Source: Alphaproteobacteria bacterium
GTDB lineage: Bacteria > Pseudomonadota > Alphaproteobacteria > SHVP01
Reading direction: 5' to 3'
Assembly: GCA_038121105.1 (NCBI GenBank)
Contig: JAYONB010000005.1
Location: 130,274-194,273, forward strand
Length of the DNA stretch: 64,000 nt
The notes below the pieces were generated by a model. It had not been told where the DNA came from. It saw only the letters and a list, made by a program, of their open reading frames with translations, and did no database searches. The position numbers were made by a program, and so were the translations under genes. Below are positions 48,489 to 58,916 of this stretch, piece by piece (position 1 is the stretch's first letter; every line of letters starts with the position of its first letter).

Positions 48489-49712
48489 ATGTCGCTCGCG
48501 TCGCAAGAGCCCTCTGAATCTCCCGCCGCAATATCGGCGCCGAATTTCGACCTCAGCGAAGAGCATCGACAATTGCTCGATGAGATCACCCGAAACGCAC
48601 GGGCCCGGTTTGGATCGGATGTCATGCAGCGGGACCTCGAGGGACGATGGCCCGAAGACGGTTTTGCTCAGCTGGCCGAAATGGGTGTGTTGGGGGCGAG
48701 CGTCCCGACGCAATATGGCGGGGCGGGACTAGATCTCTTTTCGGCCGGGTTGGTCGGTCAAGCCATCGGTCGCGTTGATCCGTCGGTGTCCACGTCGTGG
48801 CAAAGCCACGACAATTTGTGCGTCAACAACCTCTACCAAAACGGCAACGAGTTTCAGCGCCGCAAATATCTGCCCGGTTTGACCGATGGCTCGATGGTTG
48901 GCGCGATCGGCATGACCGAACCGAACGCAGGCTCGGATGCATTGGGCGGCATGGCGACCACGGCCGTGCGCGACGGGGACGCCTACGTTCTGAACGGCAG
49001 CAAGACGTTCATCACCAACGGACCGATTGCCGACATCGCGCTGGTCTACGCCAAGACCGCGCCGGAATTGGGAAAAAAGGGTATCTCGGCCTTTATCGTG
49101 GAGCGTGCCTTCGATGGGTTTTCGTCTAGCCCGCCGTTCGACAAAATGGGCATCCGGGCGAGTCCGACCGGTGCGCTCTATTTCGACGACTGTCGGGTCC
49201 CGGTAGAGAATTTGGTCGGCGAGGAAAACCAGGGGATCGCCGTCATGATGTCGGGCCTGGATATCGAACGGGCGTTCTGCTCGATGATGGTTCTAGGCAT
49301 GTCGGAACGCGCCGTCGACCTATCAGTGGAGTACGCGGGCTCGCGCCAGCAGTTCGGGCAACCGATCGGCAATTTCCAAATGGTTCAATCAAAGCTTGCC
49401 GAGATGTATGTCGCGCTCGAAACGATGCGCGGGCTGGTCTATCGCGCGCTGGCGATGGCCAATTCAGTCGGGGCGGGCGAGGGTGGCCGGGGCGAGATTC
49501 ACAAACTCTCGGCGGCGGCCTTCATGTATGCGGGCGAAGCCTGCATGCGGATTTGCGACGAAGCCGTGCAAATCCATGGCGGCAACGGTTTCATGCGCGA
49601 GACCGAGGTGAACCAGCTTTACCGGTCCGCGAAAATTCAGGAGATCGGAGGAGGCACCAAAGAAATTCGCCGCCTCATTATTGCGCGCGAGATGCTGGCC
49701 GCTCGGAGTTGA
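48489..49712 (+). CDS. acyl-CoA dehydrogenase (isovaleryl-CoA dehydrogenase-like)
   Basis: 407 aa with ACAD N-terminal, middle and C-terminal domains (..GSKTFITNG...; QIHGGNGFMRETEVNQLYR). Confidence 0.85.
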   Translation: MSLASQEPSESPAAISAPNFDLSEEHRQLLDEITRNARARFGSDVMQRDLEGRWPEDGFAQLAEMGVLGASVPTQYGGAGLDLFSAGLVGQAIGRVDPSVSTSWQSHDNLCVNNLYQNGNEFQRRKYLPGLTDGSMVGAIGMTEPNAGSDALGGMATTAVRDGDAYVLNGSKTFITNGPIADIALVYAKTAPELGKKGISAFIVERAFDGFSSSPPFDKMGIRASPTGALYFDDCRVPVENLVGEENQGIAVMMSGLDIERAFCSMMVLGMSERAVDLSVEYAGSRQQFGQPIGNFQMVQSKLAEMYVALETMRGLVYRALAMANSVGAGEGGRGEIHKLSAAAFMYAGEACMRICDEAVQIHGGNGFMRETEVNQLYRSAKIQEIGGGTKEIRRLIIAREMLAARS

Positions 49713-50958
49713 TCTCAAGCGGTCGACATCTAGTTTCTCTGAGCGAAAGCGCTGCGAGGAACCCGAGGACCATGAGCACCGGAAAAATCATGAAAGCCTG
49801 TCGATAGGCGGTCTCGCCGTAAATCCGCGCACCCTCGACGAGAGTCCCGTCCCACCCCAAGTCCAATAGCCAACCAACAAGCGGAAGCGAAGCTGCCGAC
49901 GCGGCCATGCCCGCCATGTTGATCAGCCCCATCGCGACGCCGGTTGCGGTCGGCGAATTGCTTTCCTTCGTCACCGCGAAGTTGATGATGACCGCACCGC
50001 TCGCAATGCCTTGGATGAAGAGCAGGACCTGCAGTCCCAGAAGGGGAACCGGCAACATCAGAGTCACAAGCCATGTAATGGCCAACAGTCCAGCACCGAT
50101 CGCCATGACCGGCTTGCGGCGCTGGATTCGGTCTGACAACCAACCGGCGACCGGGCCTCCCAGACCCCAACCGACCAGCACCAGCGAAATCGTCGCCCCG
50201 GCGGTGGTCTTGCTCACGCCATAGACCTCTTGGACAAACGGAACGCCGAACAGTCCCGCAAAGGCGGCCATCGGCGTCACCAAGGATCCGGTAAAGAGTG
50301 CGACCTTCCAGGTCTGGGCGCTGCGCAATACTGAGGCGAGCCCGCGCAGCACCGAGTCTGCAGTTCGCGGTTCGCTATGCATGGGTTTGTCCCGGACGAA
50401 CGGCACCATCAACACCACGATCAGCGCCATCAGAAGGCCCGACCAGAGCATTGCAGAGCGCCATCCTGCCGCGTCGATAAGGGCGGCCAATGGCGCCTGC
50501 CCAAGTACGGCGCCGACGAGACCGATAAGGAGGGAAAGACCGGTCACGGCCGCAAAGCGGTTGGCCGGCAGCCACATGACCGCAAGCGCGAGGGTGCCGA
50601 CCCAAGCCACGCCCGCCCCGGCGCCGACCAAAAGGCGACCCGTTGCCGCGAGGCCCAGGGTGGGTGCGAGCGCGAACAAGAGACTGCCGACGGCGCACAG
50701 TGCGCCCGATGCCAGAAGGACGCGCCGGACGCCAAAACGGTCGATCATCATCCCGATCGGTATCTGTAGCAGCGCGTAGGGATAGAAGTAGTAAGCCGAG
50801 AGGTTGCCCAAGCCCGCGGCGTTGGCATCGAAGGCCCGCATCAATTCGCTGGTCATGACGCTCGGCGCCACGCGTTGAAAATAGGCGTAGCCGTAGAACG
50901 CGGCGGCCAGGCCCCAAATCAACCAGGGCAGTGGCGTGTGTGTCAGCCGGTTGCTCAT
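49678..50958 (-). CDS. MFS transporter
   Basis: The start was set at the ATG at 50958 (MSNRLTHTPLPWLIWGLAAAFYGYAYFQRV) with 12 predicted TM-like segments. There is a 35-nt convergent overlap with the ACAD gene. Confidence 0.75.
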   Translation of the reverse strand: MSNRLTHTPLPWLIWGLAAAFYGYAYFQRVAPSVMTSELMRAFDANAAGLGNLSAYYFYPYALLQIPIGMMIDRFGVRRVLLASGALCAVGSLLFALAPTLGLAATGRLLVGAGAGVAWVGTLALAVMWLPANRFAAVTGLSLLIGLVGAVLGQAPLAALIDAAGWRSAMLWSGLLMALIVVLMVPFVRDKPMHSEPRTADSVLRGLASVLRSAQTWKVALFTGSLVTPMAAFAGLFGVPFVQEVYGVSKTTAGATISLVLVGWGLGGPVAGWLSDRIQRRKPVMAIGAGLLAITWLVTLMLPVPLLGLQVLLFIQGIASGAVIINFAVTKESNSPTATGVAMGLINMAGMAASAASLPLVGWLLDLGWDGTLVEGARIYGETAYRQAFMIFPVLMVLGFLAALSLRETRCRPLEINSERPASRAQ

Positions 50959-51866
50959 GGCGTTGCTCCGGCGCGCTCCCACCGCTCGCGGGCAAGGAGG
51001 ATTCCGGCCAATACCGCAATGCCGCCGATCGCTTGCTGCGCGCGTAATCCCTCGTTCAAAAGCAACCAGGCAAGCAGCGTCGCTGCCACGGGCTGCACCA
51101 ACAGCGTTAGCGACGAAAACGACGCCGCAAGGTGCGCGAGTGCAAACGCGATCAGGCTCTGACCAACCGTATGGGAGACGACCGCAAGGCCAACGAGGAT
51201 GAGCCAACCGGCCAGGGTCGTGGCAATCAAGGACTCGCCCGAGGCGAGGGCGACGACGAGAAGGATGGGCGTTGCCACCAAGCCGGACCACATCATGATG
51301 TCGAGGGTGCCGACTGACCGGCGCAGCATCTTCACACAAATGAGATACCCGGCGTAAACGACGGCGGTCAGTAGTCCGAGGGCGTCACCCAACACACTTC
51401 CATGCCCGCCGAAGCTTGCGCCCACGACCAAAGCCGTCCCGACGATGGCCACGACGAGGCCGATGATGAAGCGTCGTCCGAATGTCTCTCCAAGAAGGCC
51501 CCATGCCGCTAGCGCAACGAAGATCGGCGCCGCGTTGGCAAACAACGTGGCGTTAGCGACCGTCGTCAGCCGGATCGACCAATGCCAGACCGCTAGGTCA
51601 CCGGCAAAAAAGGCTCCCGCAAGACCTAGCAGGACATAGGTTCGGGTGGTTTTAGCGCGCTCGTTCGATCGCTTGCCGCCACTGGGCCACACCAAGAAAG
51701 CGCCGACGAAGAAGGGAAGGGAGAGCAGCATCCGGTGGAACGCGGTGGCCGCGGGGCCGACTTCACTGATCTTGACGAAGATCGGGGCAAAGGCGATCGC
51801 CATCGCCCCGACTAGAAGAGCCGCCAGCCCCAGCCCGGGGCGTATCGACGCCAAATCGTTGTTCAT
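50955..51866 (-). CDS. DMT superfamily (EamA-like) transporter
   Basis: The start was set at the ATG at 51866 (MNNDLASIRPGLGLAALLVG...), giving about 10 TM segments. ATGA overlap with the MFS start. Confidence 0.75.
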   Translation of the reverse strand: MNNDLASIRPGLGLAALLVGAMAIAFAPIFVKISEVGPAATAFHRMLLSLPFFVGAFLVWPSGGKRSNERAKTTRTYVLLGLAGAFFAGDLAVWHWSIRLTTVANATLFANAAPIFVALAAWGLLGETFGRRFIIGLVVAIVGTALVVGASFGGHGSVLGDALGLLTAVVYAGYLICVKMLRRSVGTLDIMMWSGLVATPILLVVALASGESLIATTLAGWLILVGLAVVSHTVGQSLIAFALAHLAASFSSLTLLVQPVAATLLAWLLLNEGLRAQQAIGGIAVLAGILLARERWERAGATP

Positions 51867-51925
51867 TCCCGGCTCGCGCCCCAAACATGGTCGATCAACA
51901 GCAACCGCCCCGGTATAACTGCGCG

Positions 51926-52714
51926 ATGGATCAGGTTTCCGCAAGCGCAACCGCAGCCGCATTCGAAGTGGTCAATCCCGGTGGTGCCGCGCGGGCGGTG
52001 TTGACGTGTGATCACGCCGGGAATCAGGTCCCCGCTGCCTTCGACAGCCTGGGTCTCTCGCCCGATAGGTTGGATGAGCATATAGCATGGGATATCGGGG
52101 GCGCCGAACTTACCCTTGGGCTTGCAGCCCAGCTCGATGCGCCGGCGGTCTTGGCAACGCAATCCCGGCTCTTGATCGACCCTAACCGCAAGCTTGGGAG
52201 CGCGGATTCGATTTTGCGAGTCAGCGACGGTGTGGAAATCCCGGGCAATCAAAACGTGACACCCGACGAAGCAAATATGCGCGCGGCGCTGTCCTTTTGG
52301 CCCTATCACCACGAGGTGGAAAAGGCGCTACACCTATCCGAGCACAAGAAAGGCTTGGTTGCCTATCTCGCGGTCCACACCTTCACGCCGACAATGGCCG
52401 GTGCGCCGCGGCCATGGGACATTGGCGTGCTGTACGGCAGCGACGATCGCATGGCCCGACCGCTGCTCGCCGCCCTCAGGCAGGTGGGCGGCATTTGTGT
52501 TGGCGATAACGAACCCTATTCGGCGGCGCACCCGCCTGGTTATGGGATTGAAGCATATGGCACGTCGGCGGGCCGGCCCCACGTCATGGTGGAGGTGCGG
52601 CAAGATCTGCTAACAACAGCTGAAGGCGTCGCGCGCTGGACCGAAATCTTGACCTCCGCCTTGGCCGCTATTCTGAGCGACGAATCCCTTTTCCGTTTGC
52701 AGTTCTTTCGATGA
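51926..52714 (+). CDS. N-formylglutamate amidohydrolase (FGase) family protein, paralog 2
   Basis: The likely start is the Met at 51926 (MDQVSAS...). FGase-family motifs (AVLTCDHAGNQVP...LAVHTFTP). The stop overlaps the GCS2 start (ATGA). Confidence 0.75.
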   Translation: MDQVSASATAAAFEVVNPGGAARAVLTCDHAGNQVPAAFDSLGLSPDRLDEHIAWDIGGAELTLGLAAQLDAPAVLATQSRLLIDPNRKLGSADSILRVSDGVEIPGNQNVTPDEANMRAALSFWPYHHEVEKALHLSEHKKGLVAYLAVHTFTPTMAGAPRPWDIGVLYGSDDRMARPLLAALRQVGGICVGDNEPYSAAHPPGYGIEAYGTSAGRPHVMVEVRQDLLTTAEGVARWTEILTSALAAILSDESLFRLQFFR

Positions 52715-53844
52715 TCAAAGATCCGCCACTGACGATCGGGATCGAAGAAGAGTATCTGCTTGTCGATACTGAGACGCGCAATCTTGCGACCGATCCGCCG
52801 CCTGAAATGATGGCGATTCTCGAAAAACGCATTGCCGGTCGTGTCGCACCGGAGTTTCTGAAGGCGCAAGTCGAGGTTGAGACCGGCGTACACCAGACGA
52901 TTGCGTCGGCGCGCGATGAGTTGACGGGTCTGCGCCAGGCGATTGCGGAAGCTGCCTCGCAATTCGGTCTAGCGCCGGTTGCGGCAGGTTCGCATCCTTT
53001 TGCTCTGTGGGGCGAACAAGAGCATGTCGACAAAGATCGCTACAACGCCCTTGCCCGGGATCTCCAAGCCGTGGCGCGGCGTCTCCTCATTTGCGGGATG
53101 CACGTTCATATCGGCATCGATGACGACGACCTGCGAATCGATCTGATGAACCAAGCGGCCTATTTCCTGCCGCACCTCTTGGCGCTCAGTACGTCCTCGC
53201 CGTTCTGGCAAGGTGAGGAAACGGGCCTGATGTCCTACCGCACCAGCGTCTTCGATGGTTTGCCGCGAACCGGGTTGCCCGAGCAGTTTTCGAGCTATAG
53301 CGAATACCGCCGATTGGTCGAAGCCATGGTCGGGGCCGGCGTCGTCGAAGATGCCACGCGCATCTGGTGGGATTTGAGACCCAGTGCGCGCTTCCCAACC
53401 TTGGAAATGCGATCGACGGACGTGTGCACGTCTTTGGACGATGCAGTGGCCATTGCCGCGCTGTTCCAGTGCCTCATCAGCATGTTGGTCCGACTCCGGA
53501 AGGATAACCAACGCTGGCGCGTCTACCCCGTTAGCTTGGTCAACGAAAACAGATGGTTGGCGCAGCGCTACGGCATCACCAAAGGGCTAGTGGATCTGGG
53601 CAAAGGCGCGATCGTTCCCTATATCGATTTGTTGAACGAAATTCTGGACCTCGTGGCGGAAGACGCCGATCGATTGGGATGTGCCAAGGAAATTGCCCAT
53701 GCCCGCGCGATCGTCGAGCGTGGCACCAGTGCGACATGGCAAATCGAGGCCTTTCGGACCGCCAAGGACAATGGTGCGGACGACGACAAAGCGCTGAACG
53801 CCGTCGTCGACATGCTGATCGAACGAACAGCCGTCGCGCCTTGA
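52711..53844 (+). CDS. YbdK-type carboxylate-amine ligase (glutamate-cysteine ligase family 2, GCS2)
   Basis: 377 aa. The N-terminus LTIGIEEEYLLVD is diagnostic of the YbdK/GCS2 family, with GS-like fold motifs. Confidence 0.85.
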   Translation: MIKDPPLTIGIEEEYLLVDTETRNLATDPPPEMMAILEKRIAGRVAPEFLKAQVEVETGVHQTIASARDELTGLRQAIAEAASQFGLAPVAAGSHPFALWGEQEHVDKDRYNALARDLQAVARRLLICGMHVHIGIDDDDLRIDLMNQAAYFLPHLLALSTSSPFWQGEETGLMSYRTSVFDGLPRTGLPEQFSSYSEYRRLVEAMVGAGVVEDATRIWWDLRPSARFPTLEMRSTDVCTSLDDAVAIAALFQCLISMLVRLRKDNQRWRVYPVSLVNENRWLAQRYGITKGLVDLGKGAIVPYIDLLNEILDLVAEDADRLGCAKEIAHARAIVERGTSATWQIEAFRTAKDNGADDDKALNAVVDMLIERTAVAP

Positions 53845-53871
53845 TGAAATCGTTTAGGAAGGAGAAGCCAG

Positions 53872-54186
53872 ATGGCAAGCACGGACAAAACAACTGAGAT
53901 CGAGGCCGCCGCATTCCGTCGGTTACTTCAGCACCTGCGCGATCATCCTGAGGTGCAGAACATCGAGCTGATGGGCCTCGCAGATTTTTGCCGGAATTGC
54001 CTGGCCAAATGGTATGTCGCTGCGGCGGAAGAGCAGGGTACGTCGATCGACTATGACGGTGCGCGCGAGATCGTCTACGGCATGCCCTACAGCGAGTGGA
54101 AGGCCAAGCACCAAACCGAAGCGACGCCTGAGCAACTCGCAAAATTCGAAGCCCATAAGGCCGCCGAGGAAGCGTCGGGCTCTTAA
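53872..54186 (+). CDS. DUF1244-like protein
   Basis: 104 aa (..EAAAFRRLLQHLRDHPEVQNIELMGLADFCRNCLAKWY...). Family assignment is from memory. Confidence 0.65.
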   Translation: MASTDKTTEIEAAAFRRLLQHLRDHPEVQNIELMGLADFCRNCLAKWYVAAAEEQGTSIDYDGAREIVYGMPYSEWKAKHQTEATPEQLAKFEAHKAAEEASGS

Positions 54187-54224
54187 CGACACCCTAGAAG
54201 CATGAGCAAGAGAGAACGTAAAGA

Positions 54225-54467
54225 ATGTCAGATTCAACAGTTGCAGCCGACCAATTGCGCTCGTTCGTGGAACGCATCGAGCGGTTAGAGGAAGAAAAAG
54301 CGGCGCTATCGTCGGACGTCCGCGAGGTCTATGCAGAGCTCAAGGCAACCGGTTTCGACCCCAAGACCGTTCGGCAGATCGTGCGGCTGCGAAAGCTGGA
54401 TACGAACGAGCTCCAAGAGCAAGAAGCGCTTCTCGATACCTACAAGTCGGCGCTCGGGATGGCGTAG
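54225..54467 (+). CDS. gapR: DUF2312 / GapR-like nucleoid-associated protein
   Basis: 80 aa. [50 protein letters not shown] closely matches the Caulobacter GapR core (...[42 protein letters not shown]). Confidence 0.75.
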
Positions 54468-54475
54468 ACGCAGCC

Positions 54476-54691
54476 GTGCGTCTCTTCGTCTTCTTTCTTT
54501 GCGTAGGCGTTGCGATGGTCGCGGCCATTGTATTGGCGGTTCTCTACACGACCCGCGTCGGCGACGTTGACGTAAGCCTAGCCGGGATCATCGCGATGAT
54601 CGTCGGCATCGCGGTGACCTTTCTTGTTGGCGGTGGCCTTATGTTTCTCGTTTTCCTAAGTGGACGACGCGATCAAGGCGGGGATACCTAG
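54476..54691 (+). CDS. small two-TM membrane protein (hypothetical)
   Basis: 71 aa from a GTG start, or 58 aa from the ATG at 54515. Two hydrophobic helices (VAMVAAIVLAVLY; IIAMIVGIAVTFLVGGGLMFLVFL). Confidence 0.45.
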   Translation: MRLFVFFLCVGVAMVAAIVLAVLYTTRVGDVDVSLAGIIAMIVGIAVTFLVGGGLMFLVFLSGRRDQGGDT

Positions 54692-54702
54692 CGGGCGACC
54701 GC

Positions 54703-55416
54703 CTAAAACTTCTCCACCCACGGGCGTAGGTCCAATTCTTGGGTCCAGGCGCTGCGGTGCTGGCTGTGTAACTGGAAATAGCTTTCTGCGATCGCGTCGG
54801 GATCCAACATCGCATCGGGTGCGCGTTCTGCCGCAAGGTGTGCCTGCTTCGGCGTATGAATCTGGCCGTCTATATTAGCGTAGGCGACGTGAATCCCTTT
54901 CGGGCCAAGTTCTCGGGCCATGCTCTGCGCCAGGGCCCGTAGCCCGAATTTGCCGATTGCAAATCCGGCAAAACCAGAGCTGCCCCGCATGCCCGACGTC
55001 GCGCCGGTAAAGAGAATGGTCCCCTCGCCCTGCGGCACCATGCGTTTGGCGGCCTCGCGACCGAGGAGGAATCCGCCAAGGCACGAGACCTTCCATGCGT
55101 TCATGACGTAATCGGTCTTGAGGTCGAGAATGCTTCCTTTGACACGCCCGCTGGCGTTGTAGACCGCAACCCCCAACGGCCCGAGGTCGGTCACCGTCTT
55201 CTCGACCAAATTTACGACGGCCGCCTCGTCCGTGGCGTCGGTCGGTATCGCGATGGCCTTGCCGCCAGCCTGTTTGATTTCGTCGACCAATGGGTCCAGG
55301 TGATCTGCGCTTCGCGCACCGACCGCGATGGCATAGCCGGCCCTGGCAAACCGCCGGGCGACCGAGGCGCCGGTACTCGGGCCGAGACCCAATACGATGC
55401 AGCTTTTGTTCGTCAT
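54703..55416 (-). CDS. SDR family oxidoreductase
   Basis: 237 aa with the TGxxxGxG-type motif (VLGLGPSTGASVARRF) and a YxxxK region. Confidence 0.8.
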   Translation of the reverse strand: MTNKSCIVLGLGPSTGASVARRFARAGYAIAVGARSADHLDPLVDEIKQAGGKAIAIPTDATDEAAVVNLVEKTVTDLGPLGVAVYNASGRVKGSILDLKTDYVMNAWKVSCLGGFLLGREAAKRMVPQGEGTILFTGATSGMRGSSGFAGFAIGKFGLRALAQSMARELGPKGIHVAYANIDGQIHTPKQAHLAAERAPDAMLDPDAIAESYFQLHSQHRSAWTQELDLRPWVEKF

Positions 55417-55442
55417 CTTTCCTCGCGATGTTGGGTGTGCAG

Positions 55443-58400
55443 CTACTCTGCCGCTTGTGGTCGTCCCGGGAGATCGTTCAATGCGGACAAGAGCACGTCG
55501 CGTCGCTGGTATGCCGCATCAATGCTCTCGCTCTTGATCGGTCCGAAGCCGCGGATGTCGTTGGGTAGTTCGGCAAGAGCGATGGCGGTGGCATGGGTTC
55601 TAGGAGAAAGCTTCGTCGCCAACAGACCAATCATGTTCTCGTAGTCGTGGATCAACTGGCGCTCGCGCCGCCGCTCTTTCTGGTACCCGAACGGATCGAA
55701 AGGCGTGCCGCGCAGGCGTTTTAGCGCCGCCAGTATACGGAGACTCTTGAAGAGCCACGGCCCGAACGTCAATTTCTTGGGTCGACCGGTCGTTTCGTCG
55801 GGACGTGCAAGAAGCGGTGGGGCCAGATGCAGGTTTACCCGATAAGGCCCGACGAACTGCTGATCGAGAGCACGCCGAAATTCGGCGGTGCTGAACAGGC
55901 GCGCGACCTCGTATTCATCCTTGTATGCCATCAGTTTGAAAAGACCCTTGGCAACCGCCGTGGCGAAGCCGGTTTCTCCAGGCATCTTTTCCGCCTCTGC
56001 CGCTTGGGCCCGTCTGACGACCAGTCGGTAGCGTTCGGCGTAGGCATGATCTTGGTAGGCGGTCAGGAAATCCGCGCGCCTTTCGACAATGGAGTGGGCC
56101 GTTTCCGCAAGTGGCGGCGCTTCGGCGTGGCGGTCCAGGGCCACCACGCCAGGGTCTGCGGCGGTCAGTCGGCCGAGCGCGAAGGCGCGTTTGTTGGTGT
56201 CGACCGAAACGCCGTTGAGTTCGATGGCGCGGATCAATGACTGCAACGAAACCGGGATGTCGCCGCGTTGGAAGGTAAGACCCAAGAGGAACATGTTCGT
56301 CGTGATAGAATCGCCAAAGAACCGTGTTCCAATGGCCGTCGCATCGATGAATTGGGTATGGGAATCGCTGGCGGCGAGGGTGATTTCGGCCCGCAACCGA
56401 TCCGCCTGCAAATCGAAATCGCGGTCCAGGGTAAAATCGGCGGTCGGTGTTTCGTGGCTATTGATCAGCGCGCGAGTGCGGCCGTTCTCGATGGTTGCGA
56501 TAACGTCCGGGCTCGCGGCAACGACGAGGTCGACTCCGAGAATAAGGTCAGCGGCGCCGACATCGATCCGAACCGCGTTTAGGTCTTCCGGGCGTTCGGC
56601 GATGCGAACGTGGCTCGTCACTGCACCGCCCTTTTGCGCTAGCCCGGTTTGATCGATGACGGTGACGCCCTTGCCGTCGAGGTGGGCCGCCATGCCGATC
56701 AGGGCGCCAATCGTGATAACACCCGTCCCGCCCACACCGGTGATCACAATGCCCGCAGGTTTCTCAAGAACCGATGGAGTCGGTGGGGCAAGCGATGAGA
56801 CCCGTTCAAGTTCCGGTAAAGCGCGTTCGTCTTGGCGTAGGGTGCCGCCATGGATCGTCACGAAACTTGGGCAAAATCCGTCGAGACACGAGAAGTCTTT
56901 GTTGCACGATGATTGATCGATCGCCCGCTTACGACCGAACTCGGTTTCTACCGGCACGACAGAAAGGCAGTTGGATTGCACCGAGCAGTCGCCGCAGCCT
57001 TCGCAGACCAATTCGTTGATGAAGATCCGCTTGGCAGGGTCGGGGAACGTGCCGCGTTTGCGTCGCCGGCGTTTCTCGGCCGCGCAGGTTTGATCGTAGA
57101 TCATCACGCTGACGCCCGGCACCGCGCGCAACTCGCGCTGTATCGGGTCGAGGTGATCTCGGTGATGAATCGTGGTGCCGTGGGGGAAAGCGGCCGGGCT
57201 CGCGTATTTCTCCGGCTCGTCGGATACCACGGCAATGCGCTCGACGCCTTCCGCGGACACCAGGCGCGCCATGCGTTCGACGCTGGGGCTTCCATCCGGT
57301 GCCTGGCCACCGGTCATCGCAACGGCGTCGTTGTAGAGAATCTTGTATGTGATGTTCACCCCGGCGGCGACGGCTTGCCGAATGGCCAAGCTTCCGGAGT
57401 GAACAAAAGTGCCGTCCCCGATATTGGCGAACACATGTTCGGTCCGCGTAAACGGCGCCTGTCCGACCCAGGCGGCACCCTCGCCACCCATTTGGCTGAA
57501 CGTTGCGGTTTGACGGTCCATCGACATCGCCATGTAGTGACACCCGATCCCGGCGAGGGCTCGGCTTCCCGAGGGAATTTTGGTAGATCGATTGTGCGGG
57601 CAGCCCGAACAAAAATACGGCGATCGAATGTTCACCGGCACCTGATTGCGCCGTTGTTCGCCACGCGCAGCAAGATAATCCAAGCGGTCGCGGATCGGCC
57701 CACTTCTGGTCATCCGAAGGATCCGATTGCCGATCAGAGTGGCGACCTCGCTCGGCGTCAGAATGCCGGCGGTGCAAAGCACCCGGCGCCCCTCTTCATC
57801 GAATTTGCCAATCACGCGTGGACGCTGTGCCCCGGGAAGATCGTAAAGCTGTGCTTTAACTTGATCTTCCAGAAGCGGGCGCTTTTCCTCGACGACAAGG
57901 ATTTCCTCAAGACCACGCGCAAAAGCTCTAAGTCCGTCGCCATCGAGAGGCCAACTCATCCCAATCTTGAAAACGCGAATGCCGAGCGCGGCGGCTTGCC
58001 TGTCATCGACGCCCAGGCTTTCTAGCGCCTGCCGGACATCGAGATAGGCCTTGCCGGTCGTGATGATTCCCAGTCTTGGCTGCGGCGAGTCGATTACGAT
58101 CCGATCGAAACTATTGGCCCGGGCGAATGCCTTGATCGCGTAGCGCTTGTAGTCGTGGAGACGCGCCTCTTGTTCAAGAGGCGTGTCCGGCCACCGAATG
58201 TTGAGGCCCCCTGGCGGCATGTCGAAGTCGGTCGGGGTCTTGATGTCGAGGCGGTGCGGGTCCACCAGAACGCTCGCCGAACTTTCGACGGTATCGCCAA
58301 CGGCGGTAAAACCGACCCAGGTCCCGGCGTAACGCGACATCGCCCAACCCAGCAATCCAAAGTCGATGTAGTCCTGAACGCTTGCCGGATTGATGACCGG

Positions 58401-58916
58401 CAACATCGCGGCGACGAGGCCGTGGTCGCTTTGGTGTGCAAGTGTCGAGGAAACGGCTCCGTGGTCGTCGCCGGCAAGCACCAAGACGCCCCCGTTCGGC
58501 GCAGTGCCGGCAGATGTGCCGTGCTTGATCGCGTCAAGCGCGCGGTCCAAGCCAGGGCCCTTGCCGTACCAGATCGCGAATACCCCGTCGTAGAGTGCAC
58601 CCTCGAACAAGTTGGTCTGCTGCGTTCCCCACACGGCCGTGGCGGCAAGTTCCTCGTTGATCCCGGGCTGGAAGTGGATGTGATGCGCGTCGAGGTGCTT
58701 CTTGGCACGCCACAGATTGAGGTCGTAAACGCCCAGCGGCGATCCTCGATAGCCGGAAATGAAGCCCGCGGTGTTGAGATTGGCGCGTAGGTCGCGTTGG
58801 CGCTGCATCATGGGCAGGCGGATGAGCGCTTGAGTGCCGGTCAAATAGACCCGGCCAGATTCAACCGTGTATTTGTCGTCGAGGGTTGGTGCGACCGTCA
58901 TCGAATCCGCTTCCAC
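55443..58916 (-). CDS. indolepyruvate ferredoxin oxidoreductase family protein (fused IorA/IorB)
   Basis: 1157 aa with a TPP-binding region and ferredoxin-like Cys clusters (CEGCGDCSVQSNC; CSGCPHN). Confidence 0.9.
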   Translation of the reverse strand: MEADSMTVAPTLDDKYTVESGRVYLTGTQALIRLPMMQRQRDLRANLNTAGFISGYRGSPLGVYDLNLWRAKKHLDAHHIHFQPGINEELAATAVWGTQQTNLFEGALYDGVFAIWYGKGPGLDRALDAIKHGTSAGTAPNGGVLVLAGDDHGAVSSTLAHQSDHGLVAAMLPVINPASVQDYIDFGLLGWAMSRYAGTWVGFTAVGDTVESSASVLVDPHRLDIKTPTDFDMPPGGLNIRWPDTPLEQEARLHDYKRYAIKAFARANSFDRIVIDSPQPRLGIITTGKAYLDVRQALESLGVDDRQAAALGIRVFKIGMSWPLDGDGLRAFARGLEEILVVEEKRPLLEDQVKAQLYDLPGAQRPRVIGKFDEEGRRVLCTAGILTPSEVATLIGNRILRMTRSGPIRDRLDYLAARGEQRRNQVPVNIRSPYFCSGCPHNRSTKIPSGSRALAGIGCHYMAMSMDRQTATFSQMGGEGAAWVGQAPFTRTEHVFANIGDGTFVHSGSLAIRQAVAAGVNITYKILYNDAVAMTGGQAPDGSPSVERMARLVSAEGVERIAVVSDEPEKYASPAAFPHGTTIHHRDHLDPIQRELRAVPGVSVMIYDQTCAAEKRRRRKRGTFPDPAKRIFINELVCEGCGDCSVQSNCLSVVPVETEFGRKRAIDQSSCNKDFSCLDGFCPSFVTIHGGTLRQDERALPELERVSSLAPPTPSVLEKPAGIVITGVGGTGVITIGALIGMAAHLDGKGVTVIDQTGLAQKGGAVTSHVRIAERPEDLNAVRIDVGAADLILGVDLVVAASPDVIATIENGRTRALINSHETPTADFTLDRDFDLQADRLRAEITLAASDSHTQFIDATAIGTRFFGDSITTNMFLLGLTFQRGDIPVSLQSLIRAIELNGVSVDTNKRAFALGRLTAADPGVVALDRHAEAPPLAETAHSIVERRADFLTAYQDHAYAERYRLVVRRAQAAEAEKMPGETGFATAVAKGLFKLMAYKDEYEVARLFSTAEFRRALDQQFVGPYRVNLHLAPPLLARPDETTGRPKKLTFGPWLFKSLRILAALKRLRGTPFDPFGYQKERRRERQLIHDYENMIGLLATKLSPRTHATAIALAELPNDIRGFGPIKSESIDAAYQRRDVLLSALNDLPGRPQAAE

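Follow-up and report, generated by a model that had tools for sequence, protein, structure and literature searches.

A co-inherited FGase-GCS2 hydrolase-ligase gene pair within a conserved alphaproteobacterial gene order

The stretch of DNA analysed here (hereafter the window) comprises 64,000 nucleotides of contig JAYONB010000005.1 from an alphaproteobacterium (assembly GCA_038121105.1), and contains a gene for an FGase-family amidohydrolase followed directly by a gene for a GCS2-family carboxylate-amine ligase. Comparison with homologous loci showed that the two genes form a conserved cassette that is inherited as a unit, their adjacency recurring far beyond chance. We consider it fairly likely that this two-gene FGase-GCS2 cassette is the functional unit and that it acts on a small-molecule amide and not on a protein, our best guess for the substrate being a small glutamyl-type amide. 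The FGase gene (51926-52714, + strand, 262 aa) was assigned to PF05013 with an E value of 1.3e-39, and the GCS2 gene (52711-53844, + strand, 377 aa) to PF04107 with an E value of 2.2e-59. The stop codon of the first overlaps the start codon of the second in an ATGA sequence (52711-52714, + strand), confirming the overlap described in an earlier sequence-only reading of the window.

Conservation of the pair was assessed from both partners. A GCS2-anchored search with one genome per species yielded 80 loci at ≥58% identity, 77 of which had enough upstream sequence, and the partner genes in these loci were identified by a phmmer scan of the open reading frames (ORFs). An FGase-anchored search of metagenome contigs yielded 63 loci with at least 600 bp of downstream sequence. 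Of the 77 species-level loci, 45 have FGase as the immediate upstream neighbour of GCS2 on the same strand; of the 63 metagenome loci, 33 have GCS2 as the next gene after FGase. The sequence-only reading had proposed a conserved ligase-hydrolase pair, and this neighbourhood check upholds it; since the pair recurs adjacent in many lineages, the contrary case, in which orthologues of the two genes are never adjacent, does not apply. Spacing was determined for 84 pairs, of which 67 either overlap (38 pairs, 23 of them by 4 nt) or are separated by a gap of 0-30 bp (29 pairs), while 7 have a gap above 30 bp and 10 lack an assigned start codon. The two genes are probably translationally coupled across many lineages. 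Comparison of pairwise distances for FGase and GCS2 over 72 pairs gave a correlation of r = 0.63, a value reached in 0 of 1000 permutations.

The pair was also found on its own outside Alphaproteobacteria, in several metagenome-assembled genomes (MAGs) labelled Bryobacterales or Terriglobia, in one lineage labelled Latescibacterota or Gemmatimonadaceae, and in one Woeseiaceae MAG. The remaining neighbours in these loci vary from locus to locus and are unrelated, and the FGase and GCS2 proteins have the same nearest relatives as each other. All of these cases except Woeseiaceae fall into one clade, so independent transfers of the pair have been few. Within this clade, loci L041 and L083, whose contigs carry the labels Latescibacterota and Gemmatimonadaceae, encode FGase and GCS2 proteins with 89% and 95% identity and have upstream neighbours in common; either the label or bin of at least one of them is doubtful or the transfer is very recent. 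No third gene was seen to be conserved beside the pair across lineages. No fusion proteins were present among the listed FGase and GCS2 homologues, all of which are single-domain; the N-terminal extension of a 679-aa ORF in locus L063 matches no Pfam domain.

Several observations weigh against the pair as the functional unit. The partner gene is not nearby for about 40% of the close GCS2 orthologues and about half of the close FGase homologues. In a Methyloceanibacter-type clade, GCS2 has no FGase within 6 kb and lies in a housekeeping context, with VIT1, DAHP synthase, NadE and GltX genes upstream and an SDR and a glutathione reductase as further neighbours. GCS2 is likewise missing within 5 kb of FGase in three FGase clades and in at least five scattered lineages that associate FGase with a DUF1244 gene. 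A ligase and a hydrolase acting on the same bond in a fixed ratio would waste ATP, and there is no conserved third enzyme to part the two steps. A full-text search of a paper library found no paper mentioning the FGase-GCS2 pair and no substrate for either subfamily. Finally, the one-strand order FGase-(GCS2)-(DUF1244)-GapR, which is kept across several alphaproteobacterial orders, could reflect more than inertia.

Outside the Methyloceanibacter-type clade, the GCS2 genes without FGase follow genes for acetyl-CoA-synthetase-like, GGDEF-EAL or CNNM proteins, which are mutually unrelated. The FGase homologues without GCS2 show 41-56% identity; some, in Competibacteraceae-like and further clades, stand alone. 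In 11 of the 63 metagenome loci and in L085 (4001-5147), GCS2 is missing and DUF1244 comes immediately after FGase, usually with GapR behind it; the loci listed with this GCS2-less arrangement are L085, L097, L099, L103, L105, L107, L114, L119, L137, L144, L150, L155, L159 and L167. FGases linked to GCS2 occur all over a rough neighbour-joining tree of 110 FGase sequences, and the FGase-DUF1244 form turns up in at least five scattered lineages, a pattern compatible with GCS2 having repeatedly been cleanly lost or having moved elsewhere. One of these loci, L103, is the sister of the window's clade, and only 74 bp separate its FGase and DUF1244 genes.

The window GCS2 protein scored 201.7 bits against PF04107 (cutoff 21) and passed the PRK13515 equivalog model NF010039 (508 bits, cutoff 371), and fell under the cutoff of the YbdK equivalog NF010040 (222 bits against 425). 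It was also below the cutoff of every glutamate-cysteine ligase equivalog, namely NF010043 (310/409), NF010045 (205/395), TIGR02048 (51/249) and EgtA (17/371). Searches against the Protein Data Bank (PDB) matched 1TT4 and E. coli YbdK (1R8G), both with an E value of about 1e-43. The carboxylate-amine ligase superfamily is defined by a GhExE motif on strand 1, acidic residues on strands 2 and 3, an [HD]x[NH] motif on strand 4 and an Ex[RK]xxD motif on strand 6, together with two arginines (PMC2588565). The window protein contains G10-I-E-E-E14 (GhExE), E48, E55, H131-V-H133, R223, R227 and E232-M-R-S-T-D237 (ExRxxD), and every one of these motifs is invariant in 14 homologues. Judged from these residues, the active site of the ligase is intact and looks catalytically competent. 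The protein thus resembles YbdK and 1TT4 in its Pfam family and its full set of superfamily catalytic motifs, and differs from YbdK in belonging to the PRK13515 subfamily; in addition, E. coli ybdK is not known to have an FGase neighbour.

The FGase protein, a predicted zinc amidohydrolase of COG3931 type, belongs to PF05013 with 137 bits against a cutoff of 28.9. An alternative ATG at 51887 would extend it to 275 aa; homologues 262 aa long favour the start at 51926. No NCBIfam model matched at E ≤ 0.01, and the PDB search returned 2ODF (Atu2144; E 2.6e-27). An AF2 model (pLDDT 88.5) aligned by Foldseek with 2ODF at a TM score of 0.84 and with the annotated FGase structure 2Q7S at 0.65-0.69, followed by matches to amidase_3 proteins, M14 carboxypeptidases, succinylglutamate desuccinylase (AstE) and aspartoacylase. 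Residues D29/H30, H151 and E223/R225/D227 are invariant in 15 homologues. This set of Asp/His, His and Glu-x-Arg-x-Asp positions would point to an active metal amidase, and a number of invariant arginines hint at an acidic substrate.

Annotation pipelines call the protein "N-formylglutamate amidohydrolase", and one source places a close homologue in COG3931. It shares with HutG (PF05013; PDB 2Q7S) the Pfam family, the fold and the conserved His/Asp/Glu constellation, and is structurally nearer to the uncharacterised Atu2144 than to 2Q7S. Assignment as a HutG-type enzyme was rejected on the missing NCBIfam match, which covers HutG if the library includes such a model, and on the genomic context, since no hut genes lie nearby and the neighbours are EamA, MFS, acyl-CoA dehydrogenase, pyruvate kinase and SDR genes. 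The same results bear on an explanation in which the two enzymes are unrelated, FGase being a histidine-pathway amidohydrolase and GCS2 a stand-alone weak gamma-glutamylcysteine ligase, with their adjacency no more than inherited gene order. The frequent occurrence of each gene without the other is in line with this explanation, as is the pipeline label, whereas the start-stop overlap in 38 of the 84 pairs and the recurrence of the pair alone in the Bryobacterales-dominated clade and the Woeseiaceae MAG argue against it, and we regard the explanation as very unlikely.

Among the stand-alone FGases, those of L138 (3678-6910) and L140 (1526-2644) belong to one clade and are convergent with a gene for an MR/MLE enzyme; the L138 locus also holds a nearby 2OG-Fe(II) oxygenase. 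A possible link to dipeptide epimerases was dropped, as the MR/MLE enzyme is nearer to cis-3-hydroxy-L-proline dehydratase (356 bits, below cutoff) than to Ala-Glu epimerase. Another FGase homologue that stands alone, in L086 (1-4840), is transcribed away from an ABC transporter operon of oligopeptide type, which encodes SBP_bac_5, two permeases and an ATPase.

Characterised GCS2-family members use the gamma-carboxylate of glutamate and ligate glutamate to cysteine. By analogy with the family, the window ligase would activate a carboxylate with ATP, most likely the glutamate gamma-carboxylate, and couple it to an amine or amino acid. In the same short pathway, hydrolysis of a glutamyl-type or N-acyl-amino-acid amide would fall to the FGase-type enzyme. 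This enzyme would more likely release the substrate of the ligase than break the bond that the ligase makes, the latter being disfavoured because of the ATP cost noted above. Alternatively, as in the Puu and Egt pathways, the glutamyl group may be transient and the hydrolase may take it off once a reaction encoded at another locus is complete. In the gamma-glutamylation pathways of PuuA/PuuD and EgtA/EgtC, a ligase works alongside an amidohydrolase; EgtA is a GCS2-family enzyme. The window pair resembles them in combining an ATP-dependent ligase of the glutamine-synthetase/GCS superfamily with an amide hydrolase in one operon arrangement. In contrast to the glutamine-amidotransferase-type hydrolases of those pathways, the window hydrolase has a carboxypeptidase-like FGase fold, and no intermediate-modifying enzymes are conserved beside the pair.

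A more specific version of this proposal is a thiol-based gamma-glutamyl cycle, in which GCS2 would make gamma-glutamylcysteine or a related thiol and FGase would cleave it back or trim a derivative, with EamA and DUF1244 contributing to cysteine or thiol homeostasis. The glutamate-cysteine chemistry of characterised GCS2 enzymes points in this direction, as do the sub-threshold scores of the window ligase to several such models, although it remains under the cutoff of each. The EamA family includes the E. coli exporter of cysteine and O-acetylserine. The CRNC motif, of CxxC type, is constant in three DUF1244 sequences. Glutathione-disulfide reductase (TIGR01424; 634 bits against 606) is encoded 0.8-2 kb from GCS2 in 12 loci. 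These 12 loci are all of the Methyloceanibacter type, the clade that itself lacks FGase, and the reductase gene lies on the opposite strand behind the SDR gene (for example L012, 7893-9287). Moreover, EamA and DUF1244 are not beside the pair outside Alphaproteobacteria, and two of three gammaproteobacterial DUF1244 genes are not near thiol genes. The hints are weak, and we consider the thiol cycle possible but rather unlikely; the activity of YbdK has been cited in this connection (PMC2588565).

A protein-tagging function of the Pup type, in which a small tag would be joined by the ligase via a glutamyl carboxylate and taken off again by the hydrolase, was likewise weighed. GCS2 shares its superfamily with the Pup ligase PafA (PMC2588565), and the ligase-plus-hydrolase logic of PafA/Dop pupylation resembles that of the cassette. 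The window ligase is, however, a canonical small-molecule GCS2 that matches GCS2 only and not PafA/Dop-type proteins, and ligase and hydrolase are not homologous to each other. No Pup-like gene was found, no small ORF is conserved beside the pair in the non-alphaproteobacterial loci, and no proteasome or AAA ATPase gene lies within 8 kb. The C-termini of DUF1244 differ between the window protein, 3FYB and 2O35, and known relatives with the FGase fold deacylate small N-acyl amino acids or cut peptidoglycan amide bonds. The peptide-tag idea put forward in the sequence-only reading is therefore not sustained, and we judge it extremely improbable.

The two enzyme genes are followed in the window by three small genes on the + strand. 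The first (53872-54186, 104 aa) encodes a DUF1244 protein of SMc04008-like type (PF06844; 130 bits, cutoff 27), for which the PDB search matched 3FYB and 2O35; these are the sequences that keep its CRNC motif. The second (54225-54467, 80 aa) encodes a protein with a GapR_DNA-bd domain (PF10073, 118.8 bits; NF010247, 119.7 bits, cutoff 94) that matched GapR structures in the PDB with E values of 1e-19 to 1e-23. It resembles Caulobacter GapR (CCNA_03428) in its DNA-binding domain and similar size, with an E value of 1e-19 to the Caulobacter structures, and is best described as a family member and not a verified equivalog, because the Caulobacter model NF052541 scored 89.6 against a cutoff of 140. 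The window gapR also differs from its Caulobacter counterpart in being closely trailed by the third gene (54476-54691), which begins with GTG and encodes a 71-aa protein with two predicted hydrophobic segments. The five co-oriented ORFs at 51926-54691 and their Pfam assignments were recovered by ORF and Pfam scanning as first described. The sequence-only reading had placed the three small genes at spacings of 27-38 bp; this holds for the 27 bp between GCS2 and DUF1244 and the 38 bp between DUF1244 and gapR, but gapR and the third gene are 8 bp apart if the latter begins at the GTG at 54476, and 47 bp apart if it begins at the ATG at 54515 preferred by gene callers.

The 71-aa ORF has no Pfam, NCBIfam or PADLOC match. 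It is kept only in the window's clade, L005 (7752-7964) and L103 (6437-6655), and is absent after gapR in the other loci examined. In these three diverged lineages it begins with GTG 2-8 nt past the gapR stop codon, and a C-terminal segment resembling GGGLMFLVFLSxRR is common to them. It looks like a real, lineage-restricted membrane-protein gene that is tied to gapR and not to the enzymes. A terminator-like hairpin with a T-rich tail at 54466-54483, right after the gapR stop codon and overlapping the start of the small ORF, was set aside as probably a chance structure, because its sequence is not conserved in L005 or L103.

DUF1244 and GapR accompany the enzymes in alphaproteobacterial loci only, and with a single exception they are encoded downstream on the same strand. 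In most alphaproteobacterial loci, no more than about 120 bp separate DUF1244 from GCS2; overall, distances of the two small genes range from 9 bp to several kb, with GapR up to about 4 kb away, and either may be missing. Many alphaproteobacterial loci, both those with GCS2 and those without it, have a divergent EamA gene beside FGase; no non-alphaproteobacterial locus does. SDR orthologues (E 1e-59 to 1e-98) were found downstream on the opposite strand in L009, L029, L034, L054, L074, L081, L085, L089, L096, L099, L103 and L117. Because EamA, pyruvate kinase, SDR and M3 peptidase genes recur around the block regardless of GCS2, the arrangement EamA / FGase-(GCS2)-(DUF1244)-GapR / SDR appears to be a conserved alphaproteobacterial gene order in which GCS2 is an optional insert beside FGase.

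Gammaproteobacterial DUF1244 homologues were retrieved with the Alcanivorax sequence of PDB 3FYB, and three genomic contexts showed no FGase, GCS2 or GapR gene. The neighbours were an ABC-F ATPase in Alcanivorax, formate dehydrogenase and molybdenum-cofactor genes in Modicisalibacter, and a glutathione S-transferase (GST) and an M14 peptidase in Paraglaciecola. In the last of these, a single case (L170, 620-4333), the GST gene, a gene for a 905-aa M14 peptidase and then DUF1244 lie on the same strand; M14 peptidases are also among the distant fold matches of the window FGase model.

These comparisons allow an evaluation of a five-gene functional operon, in which the pair would modify, or be co-regulated with, DUF1244, GapR and the small membrane protein. 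The tight gaps of 27, 38 and 8 bp in the window agree with such an operon, as do the position of GapR downstream on the strand of FGase in all but one of the loci where it is present, the proximity of DUF1244 to GCS2 in most alphaproteobacterial loci, and the placement of the small ORF immediately after gapR in three lineages. On the other hand, none of the three small genes occurs with the pair outside Alphaproteobacteria, GCS2 and DUF1244 are each dispensable in the block, GapR can be kilobases away, DUF1244 has different partners in Gammaproteobacteria, and the small ORF is restricted to the three lineages mentioned. In addition, Caulobacter GapR acts genome-wide as a nucleoid protein (PMC5587793). 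We find the five-gene operon distinctly unlikely. With the two-gene cassette as the functional unit, the DUF1244, gapR and small membrane genes would be neighbours by gene order, perhaps co-transcribed and outside the chemistry, and GapR would be the nucleoid protein of the lineage. DUF1244 and GapR had been named as cluster partners in the sequence-only reading; their co-orientation in the window stands, whereas their partnership is better described as a synteny block that survives the absence of GCS2 and is missing from the gammaproteobacterial DUF1244 loci.

Many species have this pair, and the window locus is one unremarkable instance of it; both families are routinely annotated. Both subfamilies are widespread under generic or probably misleading names ("carboxylate-amine ligase", "N-formylglutamate amidohydrolase"), and the physiological role of YbdK-like ligases is a long-standing loose end. 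A co-inherited cassette offers a concrete handle that narrows the substrate search and could reveal a new small amide metabolite or salvage route. We think it unlikely that the cassette produces an unrecognised glutamyl-type metabolite, possibly a thiol conjugate, or that its chemistry has a real regulatory or biochemical link to GapR, reflected in the persistent one-strand order FGase-(GCS2)-(DUF1244)-gapR-small membrane gene; if the former were true, the metabolite would be widespread in Alphaproteobacteria and present in the Bryobacterales-dominated non-alphaproteobacterial MAGs. The association with gapR and DUF1244 is a lineage-specific order that cautions against over-reading the five-gene cluster. 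The value of the locus lies in a well-defined enzyme pair for experiment and not in a new kind of system, making it a modestly interesting target for enzymology.

Across the GCS2 gene, the window is identical to contig JAYQJC010000003.1 from an uncultured alphaproteobacterial MAG, and contigs from several metagenomes carry an identical GCS2 within an unchanged gene order. The locus showed no sigma-70-like promoter, an Rfam scan of 49000-56500 gave no match, and PADLOC gave no meaningful defence matches, with only weak coiled-coil-type matches for GapR. The EamA-family transporter gene (PF00892; 50955-51866, - strand, 303 aa) is divergent from the cluster, as the sequence-only reading had stated; its start codon is 59 bp from the FGase start at 51926 and 20 bp from the alternative start at 51887. 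Downstream of it on the - strand is an MFS gene (49678-50958) that overlaps it by 4 nt. The 3' end of the MFS gene in turn overlaps a convergent acyl-CoA dehydrogenase gene by about 35 bp, and the EamA-MFS pair recurs in L005, L039 and L062. On the other side, an SDR oxidoreductase gene (PF00106; 54703-55416, - strand) is convergent with the cluster. Beyond it lies a 1157-aa ORF (55443-58916, - strand) with TPP_enzyme_C, POR and DUF6537 domains; it looks like a fused 2-oxoacid:ferredoxin oxidoreductase, and a few related loci have it too.

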